NCBI GenBank assembly: GCA_021163145.1
Contig: JAGGXH010000064.1
Coordinates: 2,197-66,196, forward strand
Direction: 5' to 3'
DNA: 64,000 nt
Source: Candidatus Aenigmatarchaeota archaeon
GTDB taxonomy: Archaea; Aenigmatarchaeota; Aenigmatarchaeia; Aenigmatarchaeales; Aenigmatarchaeaceae
Below, one piece after another: positions 10,016 through 58,371 of the stretch (positions are counted from its first letter, which is position 1; each line of letters starts with the position of its first letter). The notes under the pieces are model-generated. The model was not told where the DNA came from, searched no databases, and was given only the letters and a program-made list of their open reading frames with translations. Made by a program: the position numbers and the translations under genes.

Positions 10016-10133
10016 GGGCGGGTAGCTTAGCTTGGTTAGAGCGCTAGTCTTATAAATTAGCATTTAGCTAATTTTTTTGGCTATGCTCAATAAAAACTAG
10101 AGGTCGGGAGTTCAAATCTCCCCTCGCCCACCA
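10016..10133 (+). tRNA. tRNA-Ile (anticodon UAU) with ~40-nt canonical-position (37/38) intron
   Basis: Acceptor GGGCGGG/CUCGCCC+ACCA, D-arm GCUU/GAGC, anticodon stem CUAGU/ACUAG, loop CUUAUA|A (anticodon TAT at 10051..10053), intron ~10055..10094 forming hairpin attagc/gctaat, variable AGGUC, T-arm GGGAG-UUCAAAU-CUCCC. Confidence 0.75.
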
Positions 10134-10136
10134 TTT

Positions 10137-10162
10137 GGGCCGGTGGTCTAGTCTGGTATGAC
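10137..10162 (+). repeat. tRNA-Val 5' fragment (acceptor + D-arm, 26 nt), imperfect direct repeat of 11061..11086
   Basis: gggccggtggtctagtctggtatgac vs gggccggtggtctagcccggcatgac; no anticodon arm follows; contains the ATG of the downstream endonuclease ORF. Confidence 0.6.
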
Positions 10163-11075
10163 TATTAGAACGATTGGAAACAATATATGTAATGGAAATA
10201 AAAATAATTCTATGAAACAACTTGATAATCAAACAGTTAAAAAAATAAAAAATATGCGAAATTCCGGATACTCTTATTTCGAAATATCATCTAAGTTAAA
10301 AATAACAAAATCAACTTCATATAAATATGCAAAAAATGTTAGATTACCAGTAAAATCTAAGAAAAAAATAAGCAGAAAAATATACAAAAGGCAGAAGAAA
10401 TTTATTGAAAATTATGCAAAAACTAAAAAATTACCAAAGAATATTAAATGGAATATCAATAAAGCTAGAATAATTGGGCACTGTATTTTTGATGGGAGTG
10501 TTACTGATTTTAATGTTAATTATACCAATAGTTCTAAAAAAATAATTGACCAATTTATTAAAGATATCGAAATTGTTTATGGTTTAAAATATACAAACAT
10601 ATACATAAAAAAAGGAAGCGTGTTCGATAAATATACTGTTGCATATTCTTCAAAAAAACTATGTGAAGATTTGAAAAAATATAGTAAATCATATAATTCC
10701 ACATCAAATATGACAAAAGCTCCCAAAAAAGTTTTTATATCTGATAAAAAAATAATAAAGGAATTTATAAGAACATTTTGGGAAGATGAGGGTTGCATTA
10801 CAATTAATGGCGAGATACTTGGAAGAATAAAGAATAAAGGGCTTAGAGACGATTTATTAATACTTCATAGAAAAGTTGGAATTGCTTGTAGCCCATATAA
10901 TTGTTCAGATGGAGCATTTGGAATACGGATTATTATAAATAAGGAAAATTTAAATAAGTTTAAATCAGTATCATTTAAAGAAGCTATGATAGTTCGTGGC
11001 AACAACAAAGGAATGTTAAAGAAAAAGTTGTTAGAGAGGATATATAGACATTATTTAAATGGGCCGGTGGTCTAG
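10158..11075 (+). CDS. LAGLIDADG homing endonuclease-like protein with N-terminal HTH
   Basis: HTH-like IKNMRNSGYSYFEISSKLKITKSTSYKY; LAGLIDADG motifs ARIIGHCIFDGSV and FIRTFWEDEGCI; start codon in the tRNA-Val 5' fragment, stop TAG (11073..11075) inside the D-loop of the intact tRNA-Val. Confidence 0.6.
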   Translation: MTIRTIGNNICNGNKNNSMKQLDNQTVKKIKNMRNSGYSYFEISSKLKITKSTSYKYAKNVRLPVKSKKKISRKIYKRQKKFIENYAKTKKLPKNIKWNINKARIIGHCIFDGSVTDFNVNYTNSSKKIIDQFIKDIEIVYGLKYTNIYIKKGSVFDKYTVAYSSKKLCEDLKKYSKSYNSTSNMTKAPKKVFISDKKIIKEFIRTFWEDEGCITINGEILGRIKNKGLRDDLLILHRKVGIACSPYNCSDGAFGIRIIINKENLNKFKSVSFKEAMIVRGNNKGMLKKKLLERIYRHYLNGPVV

Positions 11076-11170
11076 CCCGGCATGACGTCACCCTTACATC
11101 CTTTCTTATGATTTATTAAGAAAGGTATGATAGGTGGATATCGCCAGTTCGAATCTGGCCCGGCCCACCA
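11061..11170 (+). tRNA. tRNA-Val (anticodon UAC) with ~33-nt anticodon-loop intron
   Basis: Acceptor GGGCCGG/CCGGCCC+ACCA, anticodon stem UCACC/GGUGG, loop CUUACA (TAC at 11095..11097), intron ~11099..11132 with hairpin cctttctta/taagaaagg, T-arm GCCAG-UUCGAAU-CUGGC. Confidence 0.75.
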
Positions 11171-11183
11171 TTTTTATTTTTAA
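11171..11183 (+). terminator. oligo-T tract after tRNA-Val
   Basis: tttttattttt immediately 3' of CCA; archaeal termination at T-runs. Confidence 0.3.
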
Positions 11184-11200
11184 TATACATAATTCTTATC

Positions 11201-12640
11201 ATGTATACTATACTAGATTGTTATACAGATGAACCATCTGGTTTAGGTGTACCACCATATATTGGAACATATCCAAGATATTTAGCAGGTGCACTTTCTA
11301 TATTAGGTAAAGAAATTGCTTATATAACAATTGATGATTTAAGATATCCGAAAAAATCAAAACTAAAAACAGATATAGCAACTTATAATAAAACAAATCA
11401 AGATATTAGAAAAATTATTTCTAATACAAAGAAATTAATTGTTGTTGCAGGTATTCATACATCTGGGAAATATTTATCAGCAATACCTGCAACTCTTAAG
11501 GAAATAATAAGAATAATTAAACCATTTAAATTCAGAAAAATATTAACAGGTCCAGCTGCATCAGTTTATGGATCTGGTATCCATGGAGGTAAGTTTTCAG
11601 AGAAAGTTGATTTGTCTGTATTTGATGAGATAAATGAAAATTATCTTGGGATTAATGACTATAACAAAATAAGAAGATATTCTATAGAAGGAGCATTTAT
11701 AGTAAAAAATAATCCAAGATATCCAAATTGTATTGTAGAAATTGAAACATCTAGGGGATGTCCTAGAAAAGTTGGATGCTCTTTTTGTACAGAATCTCTG
11801 AGAAAATTTGAAAAGAGGAATATAAATGATATTATTAATGAGGTTAAAGCGTTGTCAGATCAAGGTATTAAGTATTTTAGATTAGGAAAGCAAAGTGATT
11901 TTTTTGCTAGAAATAAAAATGAAATTGAAAAACTATTGAGATCAATAAAAGAAGATGTTTCTCCTGATGTATTGCATATTGATAATATAAATCCATCAAG
12001 TGTTACAGAAAATAAAGTTAAGATAGTAACAAAATATTGTACACCTGGAAATGTCGCAGCACTTGGTGTTGAAAGTTTTGATAAAAATGTTATAGAACAA
12101 AATAATTTAAATTCTGATCCAGATATAACAATGAATGTAATAGAAATTATAAACAAGTTTGGATCTATTAGAGGAGATAATGGGATGCCATTATTTTTAC
12201 CAGGAATAAATATTTTATTTGGATTAAAAGGAGAAACCAAAGAAACACATAAAATAAATATGAGATATCTTAAAGAAATTTTAAATAGAAAATTATTATT
12301 AAGAAGAATAAATATTAGACAAGTTGTTCTTTATCCTTATACTAAATTATATGAAACCACTAAAACCAAATTTCTTAGAAAAAATAGAAAATATTATTGG
12401 AAATGGAGAAATGAGATACGACACTCAATTGATCTTCCAATGTTAAAAAATCTGTGCCCAAAAGGAACTATTCTTAGAAATGTTTTAACTGAAATACATA
12501 ATGGCAATACTACTTTTTGCAGGCAAATAGGAACTTATCCTTTAATAATTGGGATAAAAGAGAAACTTCCATTAAACCAATTTATTAATATTGAAGTAAC
12601 TGATCATATGTTAAGAAGTCTGGTTGGTAGAAAAATCTAA
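11201..12640 (+). CDS. radical SAM domain protein with N-terminal Rossmann/B12-binding-like domain (non-canonical Cx5Cx2C cluster)
   Basis: IETSRGCPRKVGCSFCTE followed by a glycine-rich SAM-binding region; N-terminal IVVAGIHTSGKY domain; spacing checked in the DNA. Confidence 0.55.
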   Translation: MYTILDCYTDEPSGLGVPPYIGTYPRYLAGALSILGKEIAYITIDDLRYPKKSKLKTDIATYNKTNQDIRKIISNTKKLIVVAGIHTSGKYLSAIPATLKEIIRIIKPFKFRKILTGPAASVYGSGIHGGKFSEKVDLSVFDEINENYLGINDYNKIRRYSIEGAFIVKNNPRYPNCIVEIETSRGCPRKVGCSFCTESLRKFEKRNINDIINEVKALSDQGIKYFRLGKQSDFFARNKNEIEKLLRSIKEDVSPDVLHIDNINPSSVTENKVKIVTKYCTPGNVAALGVESFDKNVIEQNNLNSDPDITMNVIEIINKFGSIRGDNGMPLFLPGINILFGLKGETKETHKINMRYLKEILNRKLLLRRINIRQVVLYPYTKLYETTKTKFLRKNRKYYWKWRNEIRHSIDLPMLKNLCPKGTILRNVLTEIHNGNTTFCRQIGTYPLIIGIKEKLPLNQFINIEVTDHMLRSLVGRKI

Positions 12641-21522: not shown

Positions 21523-22767
21523 TTACTTTATAAAAGCTGATAATCCTTTTTGCCTGTATTTATATATTTCCATATTTATTTTCTTTCCTGGTGGAACAGG
21601 TATCCCATAAACTCCTGCACCACCTGGAATATATTTAAATTTATCTTCTCTAAATAGCTTAATTAATTCAGCAGTTTTTTTATGAACTTTTTCAAGTTCA
21701 TTAATAGAAATATTTAATAGAACATTAGTTTCATTTTCAAATTTATTAACAAATTCTTTCCATAAATCTTGAACCCTATTTGACCAAACCTGTTTAATAT
21801 TTAAGGCAATAGCAATAATTTCTGATAATGGTATTATATGTATATATTTTGGTCTATGCTTAGGATGAATACCTTCTTTTGTGTCAGAAAGTTCCTTAAT
21901 TCTATAATCAACACCTTTTTTAATATAATTTTTACATTTTGGACATCTCCAGTTAAGTTTTTCGGCTTCTCTTGGACTAAAAAACATTAAGCAACCTCTG
22001 CATCTTGTTCGGTTATATTTGCCTTCAAGTGGATTAAGTCCAACATTTAATATACATTTTCTATTAGCTTCTCTTTTTAATGCCTTAGATATCTCATTAA
22101 AGCTAATTTCTTTTATCTTAAGTTTATTAAATTCTCTTCCCATCTTATTTGGCCAAGGACTATGAGCATCACTATTGCTAAGAAATGTTAATTTATGTAA
22201 TTCGCTAATCCTATCAGCCATATTTGTATCTGCTGATAATCCTAATTCTAGAAAATGAATTTTATTCCAGTATTTTCCATAACAATCTTTATATGAATCA
22301 AACTTAGAATATAATGAAAAATATGGAGTAAAAGCATGCGCGAATCCTATTAAACAATCTGACTCTATACACATTTCAGCTATTTGTTCAGCACTTAACC
22401 ATAATTTAGGTCTGCCATCTGTATCTAGATTTTTACAATGTTTTTTTATTTTTTCTCTTAGTTCATATACTTTTGATAAACTAGGAAATAATATAATATG
22501 ATGAACTCTGTTATTGTCTTCAACTTCAGTCTGTAAAATAAATTTTGTTCCATTTGGATGTTCAAAAATATCTTCAGTAACTGGTTTTAATTGCTGTTTT
22601 ATTAATTTGATCCATCTTTCATTTAATATATCAGCTGTTCCAACCAGTTGTAAACCTTTTAATAGAGCTTGTTCTCCGATTACTTTTGGGATCATCTTTT
22701 GACTAACTGCACCAGAATAAAGCCCATGTACATGGAGGTCGCAATTAACTTCTATAAAATCAGACAT
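21523..22767 (-). CDS. PHP-domain nuclease with C-terminal zinc ribbons, EndoQ-like
   Basis: N-terminal CDLHVHGLYSGAVS (PHP metal-binding His cluster); C-terminal CRGC...CPKC; size ~414 aa fits archaeal endonuclease Q; assignment from memory of family features. Confidence 0.4.
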   Translation of the reverse strand: MSDFIEVNCDLHVHGLYSGAVSQKMIPKVIGEQALLKGLQLVGTADILNERWIKLIKQQLKPVTEDIFEHPNGTKFILQTEVEDNNRVHHIILFPSLSKVYELREKIKKHCKNLDTDGRPKLWLSAEQIAEMCIESDCLIGFAHAFTPYFSLYSKFDSYKDCYGKYWNKIHFLELGLSADTNMADRISELHKLTFLSNSDAHSPWPNKMGREFNKLKIKEISFNEISKALKREANRKCILNVGLNPLEGKYNRTRCRGCLMFFSPREAEKLNWRCPKCKNYIKKGVDYRIKELSDTKEGIHPKHRPKYIHIIPLSEIIAIALNIKQVWSNRVQDLWKEFVNKFENETNVLLNISINELEKVHKKTAELIKLFREDKFKYIPGGAGVYGIPVPPGKKINMEIYKYRQKGLSAFIK

Positions 22768-24194
22768 TTTTTATACACCTTATACCAATTTTTATCTAAT
22801 AAATCAAATTTTCTTAGAGTTCTACAGAAATTTAGAAATTCCTTTCTAATCATAGGATAATAGTTATTCTGAAATTTTAAAATTATATTTCTTATTTCTC
22901 TACCTTCTTTTGTAAATATAATTTTATATTTTTTATTTGGTTTTGGACTTATTTGCTTTAATTTTATTAGCTCATATTTCTTGAAAACATTTATATATTT
23001 TTTTTGACCTCTTGCAATGTCAATACCCTTAATAATGTAACCGTCTTTGATTTTCATAAAAGCTTTTGTATACTGTAAATTTAAGAACAAATATATAAAT
23101 TTTAATCTATTAATCAGATTGAATTTATAAATATCATTGATTATAAGATTTATATTTTTGAACCAATCTGAATAAATTATCAATTTAGCTGTAGTAGGAT
23201 AATTACAGCATTTGATTTTTATATTTTCATTTTTAAATATTTTTTCTAATAATAAGAAATCTGAATTTAGCGTTTTTTTATTTAAGCTAATATGATGAGT
23301 TAAAAATGTTTTTGTCTGCTTTATAGGACTTCCGTCACCTGACAAAACACCTCTAATAAAATTATTATTGTCATATGGAATATTCACATCTAATAATTTT
23401 AAAAATAGTTCTTTTAGAATAATGCTACCAATATTCATTTCAAGTGTACCGCATGGTGATCTCGATTTTCTGCTTAAATGAAGCTTTGTGAATTTTTCTA
23501 TACCGGTTTGAGTTTTCCAAAATGCCTTTAATTGTTTTTCTTTTTTCTTTAGTTTGGGGTGACAATATATAGAAGCACTAATATCTTTTCTTCTTAGGTT
23601 TGATATGCTTTCTATAAAATCTAAAATAATATTAATTGTACTAGGGTCAGAATTTGTAAATGATGGTGCTTTCTTCCCACCTTCAGCGAAATATAAACCT
23701 AATGCAGCAGATGCCAATTCAGTAATTCTTATTTTTTTGTTAAAAATAATATCTTTTTTATAATATCCTCCAACTAATACTTTTAAATTGTTTAGTTGAT
23801 ATGCATAAATTGGAGTTAATCCTGTAGATTTCGGCATAATAGAAAGAATAGATATCTCGGAAGATTCTTTCTTATTTTCTCTAATTAAAGCCTCCTTTTC
23901 TGGAATTATATCTATAATCTTAATCTTCGGATTTTTAATCAACTTTTCCTTTTTGTATGAAATAATATAACTGTTTTCTGTTCTATGCATTTTTTTGAAT
24001 CTTATTGATTTATTATCTTTATTTGAAACTTCAACAACAGTTATTAAATTATTACAAGGTTTAGAAATAAAATTTTTAATGATACTCATTGGAATTGATG
24101 TAGTAAAATTAGATCTTATATGCGGTTTATATGTATTATTATTTATAATGCTATACTTGCTTCGATCCAAATTTAACTCACTAATATTTACCAC
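22752..24194 (-). CDS. LAGLIDADG homing endonuclease-like protein (free-standing)
   Basis: Motifs LGLYFAEGGK and FIRGVLSGDGSP; 3' end overlaps the start of the EndoQ-like gene by 16 nt. Confidence 0.55.
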   Translation of the reverse strand: MVNISELNLDRSKYSIINNNTYKPHIRSNFTTSIPMSIIKNFISKPCNNLITVVEVSNKDNKSIRFKKMHRTENSYIISYKKEKLIKNPKIKIIDIIPEKEALIRENKKESSEISILSIMPKSTGLTPIYAYQLNNLKVLVGGYYKKDIIFNKKIRITELASAALGLYFAEGGKKAPSFTNSDPSTINIILDFIESISNLRRKDISASIYCHPKLKKKEKQLKAFWKTQTGIEKFTKLHLSRKSRSPCGTLEMNIGSIILKELFLKLLDVNIPYDNNNFIRGVLSGDGSPIKQTKTFLTHHISLNKKTLNSDFLLLEKIFKNENIKIKCCNYPTTAKLIIYSDWFKNINLIINDIYKFNLINRLKFIYLFLNLQYTKAFMKIKDGYIIKGIDIARGQKKYINVFKKYELIKLKQISPKPNKKYKIIFTKEGREIRNIILKFQNNYYPMIRKEFLNFCRTLRKFDLLDKNWYKVYKKCLIL

Positions 24195-24347: not shown

Positions 24348-24542
24348 TCACGAATTATCTTCTATAAATTTTTCAAAACTTCTATCAAATGTTTTTTCAG
24401 CTTCTTTAGAAAAGCAACAAGCAGGTAGCTCATTTCTACTTAAATGAAATCGTAAACATTCACAACATATTACTTTTTTATCACATCCAGAATATGTACA
24501 AGGGCATTTTTCTAAATTTTTTTGAAAATTTGGACAGTGCAT
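24348..24542 (-). CDS. small Cys-rich protein (zinc-ribbon-like), short form of listed ORF 24348..24647
   Basis: MHCPNFQKNLEKCPCTYSGCDKKVICCECLRF...; the longer listed ORF reads into the tRNA gene so the internal Met at 24540..24542 is taken. Confidence 0.3.
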   Translation of the reverse strand: MHCPNFQKNLEKCPCTYSGCDKKVICCECLRFHLSRNELPACCFSKEAEKTFDRSFEKFIEDNS

Positions 24543-24553
24543 GAAAATCACAA

Positions 24554-24663
24554 TGGTGGGCGAGGAGAGATTTGAACTCTCGACCTCTACGTTATCAGCT
24601 ACGCCTCTATTGTATTGGAAAATACAAAGATGTAGCGCTCTAACCAAGCTAAGCTACCCGCCC
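24554..24663 (-). tRNA. tRNA-Ile (anticodon GAU) with 32-nt intron at a non-canonical position (anticodon-stem 30/31)
   Basis: 5' 31 nt identical to tRNA-Ile(UAU) at 10016; joining ...gagcgctac + gctgataacgtagaggtc gives stem CUACG/CGUAG, loop CUGAUAA (GAT at plus 24594..24596), variable AGGUC, T-arm GAGAG-UUCAAAU-CUCUC, acceptor CUCGCCC+ACCA; intron 24600..24631. Confidence 0.65.
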
Positions 24664-30688: not shown

Positions 30689-31030
30689 ATGAAAATAATG
30701 TTAGATACAAGCTTTTTGATAACAGCATTAAAGTATAAAATAGATATAATATCAGAGTTAAGAGGTCATCAATTATATACAAATACTAATGTTATTAGAG
30801 AATTAGAAGGCTTATCTAAAGGTAAGGGAAAAAATGCTATGTTTGCAAGGATAGCCTTAGAACGAACTAAAAAATTTAAAATATTAACCCCTAAAATAAA
30901 AGATACTGATAAGTCACTTGTCAATTATTCAAAAAATGCCTATATTATAGCTACCCAAGACATGAAACTTAAAAAACAGCTTAAAAAATCTATTTATATT
31001 AGACAAAAGAAATATTTAGTGATGCCATGA
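30689..31030 (+). CDS. PIN-domain protein, Fcf1-like
   Basis: MLDTSFLI N-terminal Asp; YIIATQDMKLKKQL C-terminal acidic motif. Confidence 0.5.
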   Translation: MKIMLDTSFLITALKYKIDIISELRGHQLYTNTNVIRELEGLSKGKGKNAMFARIALERTKKFKILTPKIKDTDKSLVNYSKNAYIIATQDMKLKKQLKKSIYIRQKKYLVMP

Positions 31031-33550: not shown

Positions 33551-34828
33551 ATGAATACAAAGGGAAAATATATGCAACAAAAATCTGTAAAATTTGCTAA
33601 TGATTTTCTAAATAATTATAGTCATTATAAATTAGATTTTATTAATGATTTTTATGGCATAGAGCCTATTGATAAGGATTTAGAAGATTTCAAAAACTTT
33701 TTCAAAGTTATGCAGTTGAAGGCAAAAGCATTGTCGCTTAAAATTATATCTAAAAAAACTGGCCTATCCAAGTCTTCTATTGGAAAGTGGGTATTTAACA
33801 TAAGTATACCACCAATAATCCAACTTCTCAATTATCACAATAAACTAACAAAAAAATGTAATAAGAAATGGTTATCTATTAACTCTACAAGAGGCGGAAA
33901 ATTAATTGGACAATGGATAGCTGTTCCTGAAACAATTGATAATTATCAAACTATAGTGAATTTTCTAGAACAGATAAAACCATTACAAATTGCATATGAA
34001 AGAGCTAAAAAATTTAAGATAAACTTAGAAAAACAAAGAACATTACTATTTGCTTATTTACTAGGCATAATGTTGGGTGATGCGAGTAAACATGGTATTA
34101 AGAGAAGAAACAGAACTTCAAGGCGTGTACAATTGGCATTAACAGGAGCACATAAATCAAATGAGAGAATTGGTAACTTTACATCTCTATGTGCAAATTC
34201 AATAGGATTAAGAATGAATAGAATTAAAGATATGCCAGCTGGTAAAATGAACATTAAACCATTTTATAGATGGAGTTCACAGTCTTCTTTGTTAGTTCAA
34301 TGGATATTTGATGTTTGTATGGGGCTTAACAATGATCAGACAACAACATATGATAATGTTAAAATGGGCTGGCTACTAAAGATGCCTAAACAATTTAAAA
34401 TATGGTTTTTACAAGGTTTAGCAGACTCTGATGGTTATGTAGATTTCAATTCTTTTCAAGTTGGAATAATCTCTCAACCTAATACTGATTTAATTAAGAA
34501 GATTATTGAAAGTTTTGGAGTCAAATGTTCCATAAAAATTTTCAGAGAAAACAATTTAGAAGCAGTTATTGTTTCTGTTGAAGATGCATATAAATTGCAA
34601 TTATTTAACCCAATTGTAAAGAGTTACAGATATTTTGAAATGCAACGTCTTGCTACAGCAAAAAAATTATCTTGGCATATGTCAGAGGATTTAAATCTTA
34701 AAATCGTAGAATTATTGCAATCAGGATTAGATGGAACTAAATTAATTCGGAAACTCATACAAGCAGAAAATATAAGAGTAAGACCAAATGTTATAAGAAG
34801 AATAAAGAGGGTGAACAAAATTGAATAA
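33551..34828 (+). CDS. LAGLIDADG homing endonuclease-like protein with N-terminal HTH (free-standing)
   Basis: HTH-like LKIISKKTGLSKSSIGKWV; LAGLIDADG motifs LLGIMLGDASKHG and FLQGLADSDGYV; ends 17 nt before the Kae1 N-terminal remnant. Confidence 0.6.
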   Translation: MNTKGKYMQQKSVKFANDFLNNYSHYKLDFINDFYGIEPIDKDLEDFKNFFKVMQLKAKALSLKIISKKTGLSKSSIGKWVFNISIPPIIQLLNYHNKLTKKCNKKWLSINSTRGGKLIGQWIAVPETIDNYQTIVNFLEQIKPLQIAYERAKKFKINLEKQRTLLFAYLLGIMLGDASKHGIKRRNRTSRRVQLALTGAHKSNERIGNFTSLCANSIGLRMNRIKDMPAGKMNIKPFYRWSSQSSLLVQWIFDVCMGLNNDQTTTYDNVKMGWLLKMPKQFKIWFLQGLADSDGYVDFNSFQVGIISQPNTDLIKKIIESFGVKCSIKIFRENNLEAVIVSVEDAYKLQLFNPIVKSYRYFEMQRLATAKKLSWHMSEDLNLKIVELLQSGLDGTKLIRKLIQAENIRVRPNVIRRIKRVNKIE

Positions 34829-51258: not shown

Positions 51259-51990
51259 TTACCAATACTTCTTTATAAACTTTAATGATTTTTCCCCGTA
51301 ATATTTATTAAATCCTTTATTGTTAATTATGACAAGTTCTATATCAGATGGTTTTATACCAGCTTCTGCTGCTTTTAATGCAGCTATTGCAAGACTAATT
51401 GCATCTTCTTGTTTCATACCAGATTTCCATTTCTTTTCAAGAACTTTAAGTGCTTCTGCTGCACCTCTACCAATAACTTGTGCTTTCCATCCATAATATG
51501 TTGATGATGGATCAATTTCAAATAATTGAGGACCTTTTTCATCAATTCCTCCTAATAAAAATGAAACACCAAATGGTCTTACACCGCCATATTGAGTATA
51601 TAATTGCATTTTATCTGCAATTTCCTTTACTACACCTAAAACATCAATTGGCTCATCATATGTTAGTCTATAAACCTGTGCTTTTATTCTAGCATCATTT
51701 ACTAATATTCTACCATCTGCAATAAATCCTGACATTACTAATCCTAAGTGCGAATCAATTTCATGTGTCTTGTCACTGCCTGAACATGGAACAGATAAGG
51801 AAGTCATTGGCTTTATTGCAGCCAATATAACACCATTTTCAAATATTAGTCCAAGAGATGTTGTTCCTCTTTTTACAGCTTCTCTTGCATATTCTACTTG
51901 AAACAATCGTCCATCAGGAGAAAATGTTACAATTGCTCTATCATAACCACCCATTGCTCCAATATCAGGTAATGCTTCGATAATAATCAC
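51259..51990 (-). CDS. psmA: proteasome subunit alpha
   Basis: YDRAIVTFSPDGRLFQVEYA N-terminal signature. Confidence 0.9.
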   Translation of the reverse strand: MIIIEALPDIGAMGGYDRAIVTFSPDGRLFQVEYAREAVKRGTTSLGLIFENGVILAAIKPMTSLSVPCSGSDKTHEIDSHLGLVMSGFIADGRILVNDARIKAQVYRLTYDEPIDVLGVVKEIADKMQLYTQYGGVRPFGVSFLLGGIDEKGPQLFEIDPSSTYYGWKAQVIGRGAAEALKVLEKKWKSGMKQEDAISLAIAALKAAEAGIKPSDIELVIINNKGFNKYYGEKSLKFIKKYW

Positions 51991-52418
51991 CTCAAAATGT
52001 ACTAAAGTTTAATGGAATTTCTAAGTTTATAAATGTTTTATTAGTCTTTATCATATCTTATTTTATAAATTCTTGGACCATATGGGAGCACTTTATGTTT
52101 TTTAATTTGCACACAAAAGGGGCATTTTTTCAAATACAATGATTTCAGTAGGAAAAGGCATTGACACTTTTATAAATTTGACTATCCCAGGGGCGTCGAT
52201 TTTGAAAGATCAAAGAACAAACATTGCGAATCTATTTACATATACGCTTTCTACATGACATAATATAAGGAAAGTAATGTATATTTAAAGAGGATGCATG
52301 AGAGATTAAATAATGGAACTTATGTCCCAATTTTCTTTATTTTTTGGTAATTAATTACCTTAAATTATAAAACTGATATTACCATAATCTTTATAAATAT
52401 TGGATTATAACTATAGTT

Positions 52419-53216
52419 ATGCCTAATAATGATGACACATCAAAAAAGAAGAAGTATGTAGCAAAGAATCTAGTGAAGGAATTGAATTATCCGGCAATAG
52501 GGATAAAGGAAGCGGTTAAATTGATCAAAAAGGCAGCTAAACATGGTAAAGATAAAGTAATGACATTTGATGAGATATGTAGATATATGGGTATTAAAGG
52601 AGGATCTAGATCTCGATACATGGCCTCTCTAAGATTATATGGACTTGTTGAAAAAATTGGTACAGGGTGGATATTAACAGATATAGGTAAAGGTGTGGCC
52701 GATGAGAATAAACAATGTATAATTGATTCATTCCTTACTCCCAGGATTAACAAACTTATTAGAGAAAACTTCAAAATGTCACCATCTCTTGCCTCACTTA
52801 TATCATTCTTAAATAAACAACATTTAAAGATAAATTCTAAAATAATAGCAAAACGATATCTAGAAGGCATGGAATTTATTAAGGATCTACTTTCTTCAGA
52901 AGAACTTAATATTCCAAGAGATGAGCAAATTGAAATAAAAACATATATGGATATATTCAAAGCAGTCAGAATTATAGGTTGTTTTTCCCCCGTTGAAGAT
53001 ATGAAAGATGAAAAAATAGCTGCAAATGCATTATACAAATTAGCAAAGAAGAATAATTGGCAAAGGTTAACTTGGCTACTAGAAGCTCTTAAGGATCAAG
53101 AATCTGAAATAATTAAAAAATCCTCACAGAAAATTATTGAAGCATTTGAAAAGGATTCGAAAATAAAAATTAGCGATATTGATATTACTGAGAATAATAA
53201 AAATGCAGAAACCTAA
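52419..53216 (+). CDS. hypothetical protein (island gene)
   Basis: No motifs; locally higher G+C than neighbouring genes. Confidence 0.35.
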   Translation: MPNNDDTSKKKKYVAKNLVKELNYPAIGIKEAVKLIKKAAKHGKDKVMTFDEICRYMGIKGGSRSRYMASLRLYGLVEKIGTGWILTDIGKGVADENKQCIIDSFLTPRINKLIRENFKMSPSLASLISFLNKQHLKINSKIIAKRYLEGMEFIKDLLSSEELNIPRDEQIEIKTYMDIFKAVRIIGCFSPVEDMKDEKIAANALYKLAKKNNWQRLTWLLEALKDQESEIIKKSSQKIIEAFEKDSKIKISDIDITENNKNAET

Positions 53217-53234
53217 CTGATAAAGGCGTTTTTA

Positions 53235-53480
53235 ATGGGAAAAAAGTATAAAAGACCAACCTGGTTGGAAATTCGGAAGGTTTTAATCAAGGAATTTGGT
53301 TTTAATGAGATAAAGGGAACAAAGCATATATTATTAGAGAAGAAAGTTGGGAATAAGACGCGTCCTCTAGCTCTTGAAAGAAAAAATCAAATTCTTGGTA
53401 AAAAGGCATTAGGAATAATAATAAGAGAACTCAGACAAGATTTTGGTATAGACAAAGATGAATTCCTTTCTAAATTTTAA
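53235..53480 (+). CDS. hicA: HicA-like mRNA interferase toxin
   Basis: LEIRKVLIKEFGFNEIKGTKHILL (HicA dsRBD-like with His) and C-terminal LGKKALGIIIRELRQDFGI. Confidence 0.5.
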   Translation: MGKKYKRPTWLEIRKVLIKEFGFNEIKGTKHILLEKKVGNKTRPLALERKNQILGKKALGIIIRELRQDFGIDKDEFLSKF

Positions 53481-53793
53481 TTCTTTGTGGCTCTAGAATA
53501 TGGTTATAATTTTCTCTTATTAGGTTTATTGATATTTTTGGTCTTGGCATTTTCCTCTTTATTACATCATCTATATTTTTGTGCTTGAAATAATCATTGC
53601 ACATTTCTTTTAAGATTTTTACTGCTTGTTCTTTTGTTCTTGCTTGCGATACTATTGGGAATATTGGGATGAATGCTACAAAAAACTCATCCTCTTTTTC
53701 GATAAATATTGGCAACTCTAAATAAGACTTGAAATTTCTTCTATTGATACTAATTTGAATTCTTTCTGTTGAACCTTCCTTTATATTAGCCAT
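53470..53793 (-). CDS. hicB: HicB-like (UPF0150) antitoxin-domain protein
   Basis: EKEDEFFVAFIPIFPIVSQARTKEQAVKILKEMCNDY resembles the HicB N-domain; no C-terminal DNA-binding domain seen; convergent with hicA and overlaps it by 11 nt. Confidence 0.4.
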   Translation of the reverse strand: MANIKEGSTERIQISINRRNFKSYLELPIFIEKEDEFFVAFIPIFPIVSQARTKEQAVKILKEMCNDYFKHKNIDDVIKRKMPRPKISINLIRENYNHILEPQRIKI

Positions 53794-54054
53794 GTGCTTT
53801 TACCTCTTTTTCAGCTTTCATAGGATATATTGAAAATCCAATATACCCTTGAAATTAATTGGATTCTAATATTTTTAAGACTTTTGTAGTATTTATTTGT
53901 TTCCCTTTTCAACTGTGTGTAGTAGTATACATTTTACTAAAACAGATACAAATAGTTTATTGACTGATTTTATAACGAAGGAATTCAATAAATAATATTA
54001 ATTGTCTTATTAGACACGTTAAATTTATAAATATAGAAATACTACTATATAGTA

Positions 54055-54864
54055 GTGGTATATATGGAAGGTACTAATGCTTCAGAGCAAATGCAACAAA
54101 TTAGACATGAAAATATAGGAGAGCAGAGATCTATAAGTTGCTGTTATAAAAGAAGATTTATAAGCAATGATTCAGTCGACACTGCATTAGAATGGGGTAT
54201 TTGGAAAAGAGGAAAAAGTGGTACATTAGAGTTTATTAATAGTGATGATGAGAAAATCCCAGAAAAAGAGAAGGCACGATTATCTCAATTCGCAGAGCAG
54301 TATATATTATACAATGGAACAAGACAACATCCATGGATAGGCACAGATGATAAAGGTTGGGGGTTATGGTGGAAGAAAGAGGAAAATGATTTATATTTAG
54401 GCACTATTTATATCAAAGAAACTGATTTATCATTGTTATGGGAATGTTCATGCATTAAGGATTATAGAAAATCATCAACAAAATTAATGAAAGATCTTTA
54501 TCTTAGTATGAGGGAGCATTTATCAGAAGTAAATAATTTAAACGATACTCCAGGTAAAATAGAAAATTCTCATATAAGTAATGCATCTATATTTATAAAG
54601 CATATGATTGATAGTTTTGAAAGATTACGACTTCGGACTAAGAGAAAAGATAATAATCTACTCTTCGAGGCGGTTCTGAAAATGTTAGATTATTTTGATT
54701 TAGAAACGCTCCCTAATTCATTAACAACTTATAGTGAAAGAAATGATCAAGTTTTTCAATATGAAATTGGTGAATTTTCAGATTATGATTTAAGAATAAA
54801 TAATTTTACTAAATTACCAAAATTAAAAAGACATAAGATAAATTATTCTCTTTATTCTAAATAA
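54055..54864 (+). CDS. hypothetical protein (island gene)
   Basis: No motifs. Confidence 0.35.
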   Translation: MVYMEGTNASEQMQQIRHENIGEQRSISCCYKRRFISNDSVDTALEWGIWKRGKSGTLEFINSDDEKIPEKEKARLSQFAEQYILYNGTRQHPWIGTDDKGWGLWWKKEENDLYLGTIYIKETDLSLLWECSCIKDYRKSSTKLMKDLYLSMREHLSEVNNLNDTPGKIENSHISNASIFIKHMIDSFERLRLRTKRKDNNLLFEAVLKMLDYFDLETLPNSLTTYSERNDQVFQYEIGEFSDYDLRINNFTKLPKLKRHKINYSLYSK

Positions 54865-54961
54865 ATTGTTAAGGTATTAAAAGATGATTAAGAATCCTTC
54901 CCGCAATCTTTAAATACTTTAATATTAATTAATAGGTAAAGCTCGAAGACCTGAGGTCGAT

Positions 54962-55501
54962 GTGAGAATGGGACTTACAAAATACTTAAAAAAACTTTAT
55001 AGAAGCAAAGAATATAAGCAAGAATTAAAGAAAAAACTAATTCTATGGAGAAAAGAAAATGTAATTACAAAAATAAAGAGACCAACAAGACTAGATAGAG
55101 CACATGCACTTGGTTGGAAAGCAAAACAAGGATTTATATTAGTACGAACAAAAATAGGAAAAGGTACTAGTAAAAGAGAAACTCCTTCTGGAGGAAGAAA
55201 GCCTTTAAGAGCAGGTAAGACAAAGCATACTCCAAAAATGAATTTACAACATATTGCTGAAATGAGAGTTGCTAGAAAATTCCCAAATTTAGAAGTATTA
55301 AATTCATATTATGTTGCAGAAGATGGTAAGCATAAATGGTATGAAGTTATATTAGTTGATCCTAATCATCCTGCAATTAAAAAAGATAAGACAATAAATT
55401 GGATCAAGAATCAGACAAGAAGAGTATTTAGAGGTTTAACATCTGCTGGTAAACGTTCAAGAGGATTAGGCAGAGGCATGGGATTTGAGCATAAAAAATA
55501 G
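54962..55501 (+). CDS. rpl15e: 50S ribosomal protein L15e
   Basis: HALGWKAKQGFILVRTKIGKG...RAGKTKHTPK pattern. Confidence 0.85.
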   Translation: MRMGLTKYLKKLYRSKEYKQELKKKLILWRKENVITKIKRPTRLDRAHALGWKAKQGFILVRTKIGKGTSKRETPSGGRKPLRAGKTKHTPKMNLQHIAEMRVARKFPNLEVLNSYYVAEDGKHKWYEVILVDPNHPAIKKDKTINWIKNQTRRVFRGLTSAGKRSRGLGRGMGFEHKK

Positions 55502-55769
55502 ATAAATTATAGACTAAAGGAATATCGTTCTTCATTTAAGAAACCATTTCTTTCAGCATATTCTATTATTCCTCTACATAAATCTATGCTGGTATTATCT
55601 TTAACAGGCTTACCATTTATATAATACTCTTTTTCAAATTGTGTTGAAATACATTCTACAGTTTTTCCTAAAGGAGTTTTTACTGTTTGTATCAATGTAC
55701 CATTACACATATTAATTACCTAATAATAGTATAACATTAATCTTTAAATATTTAATTATTTTAAAACTT

Positions 55770-56480
55770 TTGAATCTAATTATAATTATGAAGTTTTATG
55801 ACATGCATATTCAGCCAGTAGAAGCATCAATAGATGAAATAATTAATACTGCTATTGAAATGAAATATGAGGGAATTTGCATAGTTGTAAAACCAGAAAA
55901 TTTTGAAAGATTAGAAAAAGCAAAAAACAATCAAAAACCAATAAAATTATATACAGGAATATTAATTGATACAGATAATATAGATAATATGAAAAAGCAA
56001 ATAAATGCTTATAGAGAAAAAGTAGATATTATAATTGTAGCAGGTGGAAATTATAAGATAAATAGAGCTGCTTGTGAAAATCCAAAAGTGGATATATTAG
56101 CTCATCCAGAAAAAGATAGAAATGATAATGGATTAGATGAAATTTGTTTAAGAGCTGCTAAAGAAAATAATGTTGCTATTGAAATAAATTTTAGAGAAAT
56201 ATTATATTCATATAGAAGATTAAGAGCTTCTTTGATACAAAGAATATCTAAAAATATACACTTATGTAATGAACTAAAAGTCCCAATGATAATAACTTCA
56301 GGTGCTAAAACAAGCTGGGATATGAGACAGCCTAGAGAGCTAATATCAGTTGCAAATTTATTAGGTGTTGAACTTGGTCATGCATTTAATATGATTACTA
56401 TTATTCCTGAAGAAATATTAAAGACAAATAAAATGAAACTTGAAAATAAAATTATTTCAGATGGTGTTGAAATTGTCTGA
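55770..56480 (+). CDS. rnp3: RNase P protein component 3 (Rpp30)
   Basis: PHP/TIM-barrel fold; conserved rpl15e-rnp3-rnp2 context; DMHIQP start. Confidence 0.65.
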   Translation: MNLIIIMKFYDMHIQPVEASIDEIINTAIEMKYEGICIVVKPENFERLEKAKNNQKPIKLYTGILIDTDNIDNMKKQINAYREKVDIIIVAGGNYKINRAACENPKVDILAHPEKDRNDNGLDEICLRAAKENNVAIEINFREILYSYRRLRASLIQRISKNIHLCNELKVPMIITSGAKTSWDMRQPRELISVANLLGVELGHAFNMITIIPEEILKTNKMKLENKIISDGVEIV

Positions 56481-56853
56481 TAAACCAAAAACACTTTCAC
56501 CAACATTAAGATCTAAACATAGGTATATAGCATATAAAGTAAAATCAGAAAGAGAATTAACATATGATGATTTAGTTAATTCTATTTGGCATTCTGTAAT
56601 GAATTTTTTAGGAGAATTAGGAGCATCAAAAACAAATCTTTGGGTAATTAAAAATACATATAATGAGAAAAATAAAACAGGACTTATTAGATGTGATCAT
56701 ACTCAAGTAGAACAAGTTAGAGCTAGTTTAGCTTTAATACAAAGAATTGGTGATGTAAGAGTTATAATAAATGTTTTAGGAGTTTCTGGAACAATAAAAG
56801 CTGCAAGAAAGAAGTTCTTTAATGATGTAGATCTAAAAGATTTTACTCAATAA
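56440..56853 (+). CDS. rnp2: RNase P protein component 2 (Pop5)
   Basis: RSKHRYIAYKV motif; true start probably downstream of the listed overlapping ATG. Confidence 0.65.
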   Translation: MKIKLFQMVLKLSDKPKTLSPTLRSKHRYIAYKVKSERELTYDDLVNSIWHSVMNFLGELGASKTNLWVIKNTYNEKNKTGLIRCDHTQVEQVRASLALIQRIGDVRVIINVLGVSGTIKAARKKFFNDVDLKDFTQ

Positions 56854-57027
56854 TTTAATTAATTTTATGCATTTAACTATGATGGGTTTTTGAAGATTCT
56901 TCAACAATAAGTTTATTTGAAAATATTAGGAAAAACTATTTATAATTAAGAATTGTGATAATATGGTTCCTATCCTTTTATATACATACTCTTGAACATT
57001 TAAATTCATATAAATAATACAATAATT

Positions 57028-58371
57028 ATGAAAAAAGAGACTACAAACAAAGCACTAAAGAATTTAACCTTAGATGGAATATTTTCTCAAGCAAGAATAG
57101 GTATTACAGCTAATTATTTAATACCATTAGCACTTATGTTAGGAGCTACAAATGAATTTATAGGAATATTAAATGCAATACCTCATTTAATGGGAATGGT
57201 ATTTCAACCAATGGCAGCAAAGATAAATAGATTTTTTAATAATAAGAAATTTGTTACTGTATTTTTTTCCTTGCTACATAGATTATTTTGGATCCCATTA
57301 GTTATTGTTCCATTTGTTGTTCCTAATGGATTAATTTGGCTATTATTATTCTTAGCAATATCAAGTATATTTAGTCATATTGCTACAACAACATGGACAT
57401 CTTGGATGATGCATTTAGTACCAAAGAAAATAAGAGGAATATATTTTGGTAAAAGAAATATGATTTCTAATTTAAGTGCATTTGTAACAAGTTTATTAGC
57501 AGGATGGTATCTTGGAATTATAGATGGAGCATTTGGATTTATAACATTGTTTATTTTTGCAACATTTCTTGGTTTGATATCAAGTTATTATCTATCAAAG
57601 ATACCAAATATAAAATCAAAAGCAAAACCATATTTTCATTTTAGTTTTAAAAAATTCTTTAAAGGATATGTGGATCATGAAAATTATTCTAATTTTGTAA
57701 TATTCATGTCATTAGCATATTTTTCAATAACAATTGCTTCGCCATTTGTTGTAGTATACATACTAAGAGATCTAAATCTTAGTTATTCTTTATTTGCTAT
57801 TGCAATAGCTATTCAAGCATTATTTGACATGATATCGCAACCATATTGGGGAAAGTTTTCAGATAAATTTGGAGATAGGACAACATTAATTATTTGCTTT
57901 TCAATGGCACCATTTAGCATACTTGCATGGGCATTTATTTCTTCATTTTGGCAAATTATAATACTTCAAGTATTTACTGGTTTTATCTGGGCAGGATTTA
58001 ATTTATCTGTATTTAATTATCTTTTAGATAGTACACCAAGTATTGATAGTGTAAGGTTTATAGGAAACTATAGAATGTTTACTGCATTTGGTAATTTCTT
58101 TGGTCCATTAACAGGTGGATTATTAGCAACATATTTTGCATCTCAAACATTTTTCATTTTCTCTGGATTACAATTATTATTTATTCTTGCATTTGTTATG
58201 AGACTCTTATTGGCAATTTATATGATTCCACGAGTAAAAGAAATAAGAGTTAAAGCAAAAACAAGAGATTTCAAAAATATTTATTTAAAAGCTCTTGTTA
58301 AATATCCTTTACATTCAGTATCAAGAGAAATTCTTCATATTATACAACATGTGCATTATGAAAAGAAATAA
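57028..58371 (+). CDS. MFS-type transporter (~12 TM)
   Basis: Alternating hydrophobic helices over 447 aa; GxxxxR-type inter-helix loops. Confidence 0.5.
   Translation: MKKETTNKALKNLTLDGIFSQARIGITANYLIPLALMLGATNEFIGILNAIPHLMGMVFQPMAAKINRFFNNKKFVTVFFSLLHRLFWIPLVIVPFVVPNGLIWLLLFLAISSIFSHIATTTWTSWMMHLVPKKIRGIYFGKRNMISNLSAFVTSLLAGWYLGIIDGAFGFITLFIFATFLGLISSYYLSKIPNIKSKAKPYFHFSFKKFFKGYVDHENYSNFVIFMSLAYFSITIASPFVVVYILRDLNLSYSLFAIAIAIQALFDMISQPYWGKFSDKFGDRTTLIICFSMAPFSILAWAFISSFWQIIILQVFTGFIWAGFNLSVFNYLLDSTPSIDSVRFIGNYRMFTAFGNFFGPLTGGLLATYFASQTFFIFSGLQLLFILAFVMRLLLAIYMIPRVKEIRVKAKTRDFKNIYLKALVKYPLHSVSREILHIIQHVHYEKK

Follow-up and report, generated by a model that had tools for sequence, protein, structure and literature searches.

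In silico analyses of a 64,000-nt stretch of archaeal DNA (Candidatus Aenigmatarchaeota archaeon, GenBank assembly GCA_021163145.1, contig JAGGXH010000064.1, positions 2,197 to 66,196 of the forward strand; GC content of ~27.5%), here referred to as the window, revealed an islet of 2,971 nt in which two small genes converge and overlap at their 3′ ends. We consider it probable that these genes, here named hicA and hicB-like, form a genuine compact toxin-antitoxin (TA) module of the HicA/HicB type that is arranged tail to tail in this clade of DPANN archaea. The convergent 3′ overlap was found in five diverged lineages, i.e., the window and four others, with overlaps of 11 to 20 nt and protein identities of 28% to 50%. 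The unusual point is this conserved convergent pairing of a toxin with its antitoxin.

The convergent hicA and hicB-like genes

An earlier note on this DNA, made from the sequence alone, had described a HicA-like and a HicB-like gene with a convergent overlap of 11 nt. The overlap was recovered at 53470 to 53480, and the corresponding features are as follows (positions are those of the window; ORF, open reading frame).

53235..53480, plus strand: hicA, an ORF of 81 amino acids (from the ORF list)
53470..53793, minus strand: hicB-like gene, 107 amino acids (from the ORF list, homologs, and family profile)
53470..53480, no strand: 11-nt overlap of the two 3′ ends with both stop codons within it, reading TTAAAATTTAG in the hicB sense

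The HicA-like identity put forward in the earlier note was borne out by a fold model, a 49%-identical partner in a related locus, and matches of the related partners to the HicA family. A single-sequence AlphaFold2 model of the 81-aa protein was confident (predicted local distance difference test [pLDDT] of 86.2, predicted template modeling score [pTM] of 0.71) and has the topology helix, three strands, helix, and short C-terminal helix. With this model, the HicA of Burkholderia pseudomallei ranked first in Foldseek at a nonsignificant E value (0.26). The HicA partner in locus L043 is 49% identical to the 81-aa protein (BLASTP E = 1e-21), and all five partner proteins from related loci match PF07927, with a best E value of 5.3e-11. 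Furthermore, a profile of the six HicA sequences matched 1whz (2.2e-4), the HicA of 9svk (0.02), and the HicA of 5yrz (0.036) in the PDB. His31 is invariant in the six-sequence alignment, and in the comparison with the PDB HicA sequences it falls on their catalytic His. Its local motif reads G-T-K-H, not G-S-H, and the second histidine of the “P-x-H” type is absent, so that catalytic competence is likely but uncertain. By fold and homology, the 81-aa protein is a HicA, and its toxicity and RNase activity are predicted from its homologs.

For the 107-aa protein, 1.84 billion representatives were searched exhaustively with phmmer, which yielded six homologs with lengths of 84 to 122 aa and E values between 1e-20 and 4.6e-4. 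Their alignment displays the signature D-L-P-I-x-I-x-K-E...F-V-A-x-I-P...Q-G-x-T-x-E-E-A...L-K-E-A...Y-F. It places an N-terminal HicB core of the UPF0150 type at about residues 25 to 75 of the 107-aa protein, and the family carries conserved short extensions of ~25 aa at the N terminus and ~30 aa at the C terminus. A profile of the family matched TTHA1756 of Thermus thermophilus (E = 4.6e-4) and Escherichia coli HicB (0.023 to 0.027) in the PDB, with an additional weak match to the HicB of B. pseudomallei. No helix-turn-helix (HTH)- or ribbon-helix-helix (RHH)-like domain was found in the family alignment, and no DNA-binding family was matched in Pfam scans; the suggestion that the HicB-like protein lacks a DNA-binding domain thus held up. 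On its own, the 107-aa protein matched only PHD_like in Pfam (E = 0.05). Individual family members matched PHD_like, UPF0150, and HicB_lk_antitox at E values of 7.5e-4 to 0.06, the best being PHD_like at 7.5e-4, all under the gathering scores, and the homolog P0008 is labeled “HicB family antitoxin” at NCBI. A PF07927 gene is the immediate neighbor in six of the seven lineages of the family, window included. The HicB assignment is made because the profile matches, weak as they are, agree with each other and with the genomic linkage. The 107-aa protein is accordingly classed by sequence as a HicB-like core protein without a DNA-binding domain, which presumably neutralizes HicA.

The convergent arrangement was then compared across the homologous loci. 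Besides the window, four lineages showed it (identities are to the HicB-like protein of the window; MAG, metagenome-assembled genome).

P0004, loci L043/L044: 48% identity; HicA of 82 aa; 11-nt overlap with the same TTAAAATTTAG as in the window
P0005 (Nanoarchaeota MAG), loci L045-48: 39% identity; HicA of 78 aa; 17-nt overlap
P0008 (Nanoarchaeota MAG), locus L051: 38% identity; HicA of 80 aa; 20-nt overlap
P0007/P0011 cluster (four samples), loci L057-60: 28% identity; HicA of 91 aa; 17-nt overlap

The most distant relatives are co-directional, with hicB preceding hicA, as in P0009 (L052-54). Locus L056, the only new locus obtained by searching viral contigs, plasmids, and metagenome contigs, is a canonical co-directional hicBA with an 80-aa HicB. 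P0006, a partial homolog, has no HicA beside it; its contig, which resembles a virus or plasmid, stems from the sample that also contained the window organism. The genes neighboring the five convergent loci show no similarity between loci, and the comparison of these neighbors across loci revealed no conserved third gene beside the module. Convergent pairing in five lineages among unrelated neighbors therefore points to a mobile two-gene module and not to two orphans; the pair moves and persists as a unit. Several of the convergent loci are found in variable or defense-like settings that include NTP_transf_2, NYN, D12 methylase, and DUF5655 genes.

In L051 (2143-3158), L045 (9508-10312), and L052 (1942-6900), the adjoining genes encode a nucleotidyltransferase (MNT-like), NYN, D12 methylase, DUF234 ATPase, and SLFN/AlbA_2 proteins; the variable, defense-like settings of the other copies contrast with the housekeeping setting in the window. 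An 84-aa protein with a HicB-like core 45% identical to that of the window protein is encoded at 4001-4255 of L049 (JGI 3300016457 Ga0186713_162590), a contig from the sample of the window organism. Its gene lies amid small co-directional ORFs and a DnaQ/PolB-exonuclease gene with a virus- or plasmid-like look, and its GC content (0.288) and GC content at third codon positions (GC3; 0.20) are near the composition of the islet.

An acquired islet at a rearranged superoperon

We further examined the islet as a whole. The four ORFs and the two spacers reported for this region in the earlier note were recovered, the spacers with lengths of 428 and 261 nt, and the islet with its flanks comprises the following further features.

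51259..51990, minus strand: psmA (proteasome alpha), Pfam Proteasome E = 4.9e-53; left flank of the islet and, by the gene calls, first gene of the block psmA-SBDS-Rrp4-Rrp41-Rrp42-L37ae-RpoP-Pcc1-prefoldin
51991..52418, no strand: divergent spacer of 428 nt, the longest of the window, GC content of 0.262
52390..52415, plus strand: TATA-box-like element TTTATAAATA...ACTATA, a direct repeat that ends 3 nt before the p265 start codon
52419..53216, plus strand: ORF p265, 265 aa (from the ORF list), which stops 18 nt upstream of hicA
53794..54054, no strand: divergent spacer of 261 nt, GC content of 0.234, presumed to hold the promoters of the hicB-like gene (minus strand) and of p269 (plus strand)
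54024..54049, plus strand: similar copy of the TTTATAAATA element, a direct repeat before p269
54055..54864, plus strand: ORF p269, 269 aa; the start of the gene caller is the ATG at 54064, which gives 266 aa
54962..55501, plus strand: rpl15e, Pfam L15e 9.4e-65
54962..56853, plus strand: block of rpl15e, p67 (minus strand), Rpp30, and Pop5, right flank of the islet; RNase_P_p30 2.6e-40 for Rpp30

With a codon model derived from 37 long genes of the window, all four islet ORFs scored higher in their own frame than in the other five, and the gene order recurs in independent metagenome assemblies (L002-L006, L011). At NCBI, proteins identical to those of the islet are named “hypothetical protein” (J7K26_04075/04080/04085).

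To collect the loci of relatives, Rpp30 was used as the query against GTDB species representatives, which yielded 31 loci. The closest relatives have L15e-Rpp30-Pop5-psmA-SBDS-Rrp4 as an unbroken array of genes in one orientation, with a gap of ~38 nt between Pop5 and psmA; this contiguous form is present in L012/L013 (where psmA shares 69% and L15e 74% identity with its counterpart in the window), L028, and Methanobacteriaceae (L029-L035). The array is the known archaeal exosome superoperon (PMC2695463). Relative to this ancestral superoperon, the L15e-Pop5 block is inverted in the window, and the islet sits at the new psmA/L15e junction. A gene for a 447-aa protein follows Pop5 co-directionally in the window (57028-58371, plus strand) and is the divergent upstream neighbor of L15e in L014 (comparison of window 54962-58371 with L014 909-3025). 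Because this gene is placed exactly as predicted, the order in the window can be read as a simple inversion of the ~2-kb L15e-Rpp30-Pop5 block. The insertion between two conserved operons proposed in the earlier note thus requires a correction: the blocks on both sides are contiguous in relatives, but they represent one ancestral superoperon that was split by the L15e-Pop5 inversion.

No homolog of the four islet proteins or of p67 was found in the 31 related loci or in the other fetched loci. The islet had also been described as less AT-rich than its flanks, which does not hold for bulk composition: the GC content of the region from 52 to 55 kb is 0.28 to 0.29, compared with a window mean of ~0.275 and 0.316 in the psmA flank. 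While bulk GC is ordinary, GC3 is about doubled. By gene, it amounts to 0.229 (p265), 0.256, 0.250, and 0.196 (p269) versus 0.124 ± 0.035 for the other ORFs, and pooled, to 0.223 versus 0.122 (Fisher P = 1.4e-13). The islet has a codon log-likelihood of 0.27, versus 0.50 ± 0.13. The doubled GC3 and the atypical codon score therefore support a recent acquisition. The islet, missing from close relatives and compositionally atypical, is horizontally acquired, in agreement with the foreign origin suggested before. At its borders, no integrase, tRNA target, or flanking direct repeats were found, and inverted repeats at the borders of inversion and islet were limited to short, imperfect, AT-rich matches. 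Raised GC3 (0.18 to 0.20 versus the norm of 0.12) was also seen at window positions 10158-11075, 22752-24194, 30689-31030, and 33551-34828, whose genes may be acquired or weakly expressed.

The two larger ORFs of the islet lie outside the conserved module. Among 5.8e9 proteins, p265 matched only itself, without a match in the PDB, in viral sequences, or in related loci, and its weak Pfam matches were TFIIE_beta and MarR_2 (E values of 0.03 to 0.1); p265 is an ORFan with a possible N-terminal winged helix. As its gene ends 18 nt upstream of hicA, hicA may be cotranscribed with it or read through from it. For p269, no match was found in Pfam, NCBIfam, PADLOC, PHROG, or the PDB, and no relative in metagenome contigs, viral contigs, or related loci; by its sequence, p269 is classed as an ORFan. 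A paralogous relationship of p265 and p269 was considered and rejected, since a direct comparison showed them to be unrelated. PADLOC gave no match at E ≤ 1 for five proteins (the four islet proteins and p67). The idea of a defense islet found no supporting evidence in the islet scans, in which PADLOC was negative and p265 and p269 remained ORFans without a detectable family.

Several TTTATAAA TATA-like boxes are located within the 428-nt spacer, which presumably houses the p265 promoter as well as a new one for psmA. The TTTATAAATA boxes lie ~25 nt ahead of the starts of p265 and p269, which fits archaeal leaderless promoters, and a leaderless mRNA is implied for p265, given that the element ends 3 nt before its start codon. 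The TTTATAAATA-type pattern has two matches versus 0.01 expected, the pattern being derived from those two sites. A noncoding RNA in the 428-nt spacer was rejected: no Rfam match was obtained at E ≤ 1, a tRNA scan was negative, and the folding z-scores were +0.83 and +0.27. The psmA ORF opens at a GTG; 12 codons further on lies an ATG (Met13), which precedes the conserved GYDRA N-terminal signature (51955-51990). Translation probably starts at this internal ATG, in which case the spacer would measure ~464 nt.

Further observations concern the neighborhood and its assembly. The 67-aa ORF p67 (window 55507-55710, minus strand) lies between rpl15e and Rpp30, where close relatives have ~50 nt; its GC3 of 0.118 is native-like, and a metagenome gene caller predicts it as well. 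An ORF of 183 aa at window 52487-53038 (minus strand), antisense within the p265 gene, was rejected as spurious (codon score of −0.08, purine content of 0.42), a reminder that long shadow ORFs arise even at 27% GC. Several contigs of one data set, built with different assemblers (L002-L005, L007-L010), have exactly the same end point at position 53933 of the hicB/p269 spacer; the end of L011 is at 54045 and that of the last piece of L001 at 54290. The shared breakpoints at 53933 may reflect an assembly-graph fork caused by differences between strains in the right half of the islet. In L001 (Ga0186713_161260), positions 10300-11250 correspond to window 53550-57078 in rearranged form, with three strand-switch junctions within 1 kb at microhomologies of 13, 5, and 5 nt. 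We discarded this contig as a real alternative (inverted) arrangement, since strand switches at microhomologies of 5 to 13 nt are typical of chimeric reads or assembly; by coincidence, this apparent artifact puts the L15e-Pop5 block back into its ancestral orientation. Elsewhere in the window, two intron-containing tRNA genes at 10016-10130 (plus strand) and 24557-24663 (minus strand) were detected with Rfam (57.6 and 49 bits) and missed by ARAGORN. The latter is overlapped by a 99-aa ORF at 24348-24647, which is probably spurious.

Proposed mode of action and alternative explanations

In classical HicAB structures, HicB masks the active site of HicA. By analogy with this mechanism, the HicA described here would act as a His-dependent, translation-independent RNase, and the HicB-like core would bind HicA and occlude its active site. 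Because the antitoxin has no DNA-binding domain and the two genes share no promoter, the usual operon autoregulation is inapplicable, and each gene needs a promoter of its own. In the various loci, both genes are preceded by TATA-like or Shine-Dalgarno elements, and in the window, a Shine-Dalgarno-like motif (GAGGT) is positioned 9 nt upstream of the hicB-like ATG. More tentatively, the toxin-antitoxin ratio might be set by the two independent convergent promoters and might be coupled via collision of RNA polymerases and/or pairing of the complementary 3′ ends. Downstream of the stop codons in the window, the nearest run of five T residues is 55 nt away for hicA and 66 nt away for hicB; a mutual antisense overlap of the mRNAs of at least ~130 nt in the window is therefore predicted. 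In some homologous loci, no T-run is present within 160 nt.

A more far-reaching idea, which we regard as rather unlikely, is that the tail-to-tail overlap serves as the regulatory device of this clade, with 3′-antisense mRNAs that titrate or truncate each other. Coupling could then proceed by polymerase collision or by duplex formation and cleavage, possibly sensed by HicA with its dsRBD fold. If true, the module would be a type II TA system, acting by protein-protein contact, with a type I-like RNA coupling, and it would answer how HicAB with an antitoxin lacking a DNA-binding domain is controlled. Coupling by antisense RNA or interference is put forward here as a hypothesis, and the neutral alternative, a historical inversion together with genome compaction, is at least as likely.

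Several results weigh against a HicA/HicB-type module. The 81-aa protein has no match to PF07927 in Pfam even at E ≤ 10. Neither HicA nor HicB was found for the four islet proteins in Pfam, NCBIfam, PADLOC, and PHROGs (including searches at E ≤ 10 and with trimmed domains), and the only matches in these profile scans were weak ones to PHD_like, DUF1836, MarR_2, and TFIIE_beta; phmmer searches of the single islet sequences against the PDB gave nothing meaningful. The earlier note had proposed to abandon its claim if profile searches failed to support the HicA and HicB folds, and since standard profile searches found nothing, the claim would have fallen by this measure without deeper searches. 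Pfam, NCBIfam, and PADLOC recognize neither protein directly, but the deeper homolog and family-profile searches support HicA and HicB. Moreover, the 11-nt overlap by itself is unremarkable in a compact genome, as 7 of the 11 convergent gene pairs in the window have a gap of ≤11 nt and two overlap by 4 nt. As an alternative, corresponding to the orphans of the earlier note, both small genes could be orphans or remnants without any relationship, brought together by local rearrangement. Their position at the inversion junction would fit, as would the failure of curated profiles to recognize either protein and a word-indexed search of 5.8 billion proteins, in which the 81-, 107-, and 265-aa proteins produced self matches only. 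This last null result is misleading here because a 49%-identical HicA exists. Identical pairing, orientation, and overlap in four other lineages with different neighbors refutes the orphan explanation, and the closest locus, L043, has the identical 11-nt overlap sequence; we judge it to be almost certainly wrong.

It is possible, albeit not the explanation we favor, that the HicA/HicB pair is real and its convergent overlap a neutral accident, produced by a single ancestral inversion and genome compaction, with separate constitutive promoters and no coupling. The spacing of the window genes is consistent with this (the 7 of 11 convergent pairs that are at most 11 nt apart or overlapping), and so are the differences in length and sequence of the overlap among lineages (11, 17, 17, and 20 nt) and the unconserved positions of the T-runs; a compact HicB without a DNA-binding domain is presumably functional in ordinary operons, too (PMC10865869). 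However, the layout survives divergence down to 28% identity and repeated moves to unrelated contexts, with zero reversions to an operon among the members of the closer clade; such persistence suggests that selection at least tolerates the layout and possibly favors it. The pair might also not be a TA system at all, the HicA-fold protein being a nontoxic RNA-binding or regulatory protein that, together with its HicB-like partner, has a housekeeping or regulatory role in RNA metabolism. The atypical catalytic motif GTKH with the second His missing, the location between RNA-processing operons (exosome and RNase P genes), and the absence of toxicity data on any compact HicAB without a DNA-binding domain (PMC10865869) speak for such a role. 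Nevertheless, the exosome-adjacent position is not conserved, relatives being without the islet, homologous pairs occur in variable and partly defense-like settings (NTP_transf_2, NYN, D12 methylase, SLFN/AlbA_2), and His31 is invariant, which makes this an improbable explanation. Little probability is likewise assigned to the whole four-gene islet being one defense or addiction system, in which p265, as a possible winged-helix regulator, and p269 would act with HicAB. All four genes share the raised GC3, p265 stops 18 nt before hicA, and a similar promoter-like 26-mer precedes p265 and p269; on the other hand, homologs of p265 and p269 accompany no other copy of the module, and both lack a match in PADLOC, Pfam, and the PDB. 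Taken together, a compact HicA/HicB-type TA module remains the reading we prefer.

Relation to known systems

Almost by definition, a type II TA system is an autoregulated operon of two genes. Unlike this canonical form, in which the genes are co-directional and bicistronic, hicA and hicB-like lie on opposite strands here and in four other lineages. Targeted literature searches found no description of convergent HicAB or of a convergent type II TA system. A stable convergent clade shows that the operon organization is dispensable for keeping HicAB together through horizontal transfer. It departs from the operon rule of type II systems and provides a natural setting in which to study control by convergent transcription in archaea, including the possible regulation of HicB proteins that lack a DNA-binding domain. 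At this locus, a mobile islet coincides with the break-up of one of the most highly conserved archaeal arrays (L15e-RNase P-proteasome-exosome) in a DPANN genome of reduced size. In practical terms, the result is of modest weight; it is computational, is based on five lineages, and concerns a well-known toxin family.

A 2024 survey of HicA contexts (Gerdes) distinguished 14 classes, with bicistronic operons in classes 1 to 10, fused hicA-hicB in classes 11 to 13, and an SMC-HicA fusion in class 14, and the words “convergent” and “opposite” are absent from it (PMC10865869). Classes 1 and 2, whose HicB lacks a DNA-binding domain, were described as common in archaea and experimentally untested, and their regulation was called an open question (PMC10865869). 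The module described here resembles these classes in having a HicA of 60 to 85 aa (here 81 aa) and a HicB without an HTH, RHH, or Phd domain (PMC10865869), and its genes are likewise tightly linked or overlapping. HicB of classes 1 and 2 measures about 60 to 103 aa and comprises only a partial RNase-H-like core, whereas the protein in the window is, at 107 aa, slightly above this range (PMC10865869) and has conserved N- and C-terminal extensions. In contrast to the bicistronic operons of both classes, with their probable translational coupling, the genes are convergent and overlap at their 3′ ends, so that two promoters are needed. With the classical HicAB systems of E. coli, B. pseudomallei, Yersinia pestis (HicA3B3), and Streptococcus pneumoniae (PDB 6hpb, 6g26, 4p78, and 5yrz), the pair shares the HicA fold, the position of the catalytic His, and the HicB N-terminal core motif ..QG.T.EEA...L.EA.

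Converging transcription units with complementary 3′ ends are otherwise a trait of type I TA systems, such as yonT/SR6 of Bacillus subtilis (PMC5848175) and those reviewed for Clostridia (PMC6563280). In type I systems, the antitoxin is a noncoding RNA and the toxin a small, hydrophobic, membrane-active peptide; here, toxin and antitoxin alike are soluble, conserved proteins that belong to type II families, and an RNA-RNA interaction as in type I would be hypothetical. The flanks of the islet (L15e, Rpp30, Pop5, PsmA, SBDS, Rrp4, Rrp41, Rrp42, L37ae, and RpoP) correspond to the archaeal exosome/proteasome superoperon, from which the locus differs by the inverted L15e-Pop5 part and the 3-kb islet between this part and psmA. 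What is new here is the conserved tail-to-tail layout of HicA and HicB, while the toxin family itself is familiar.

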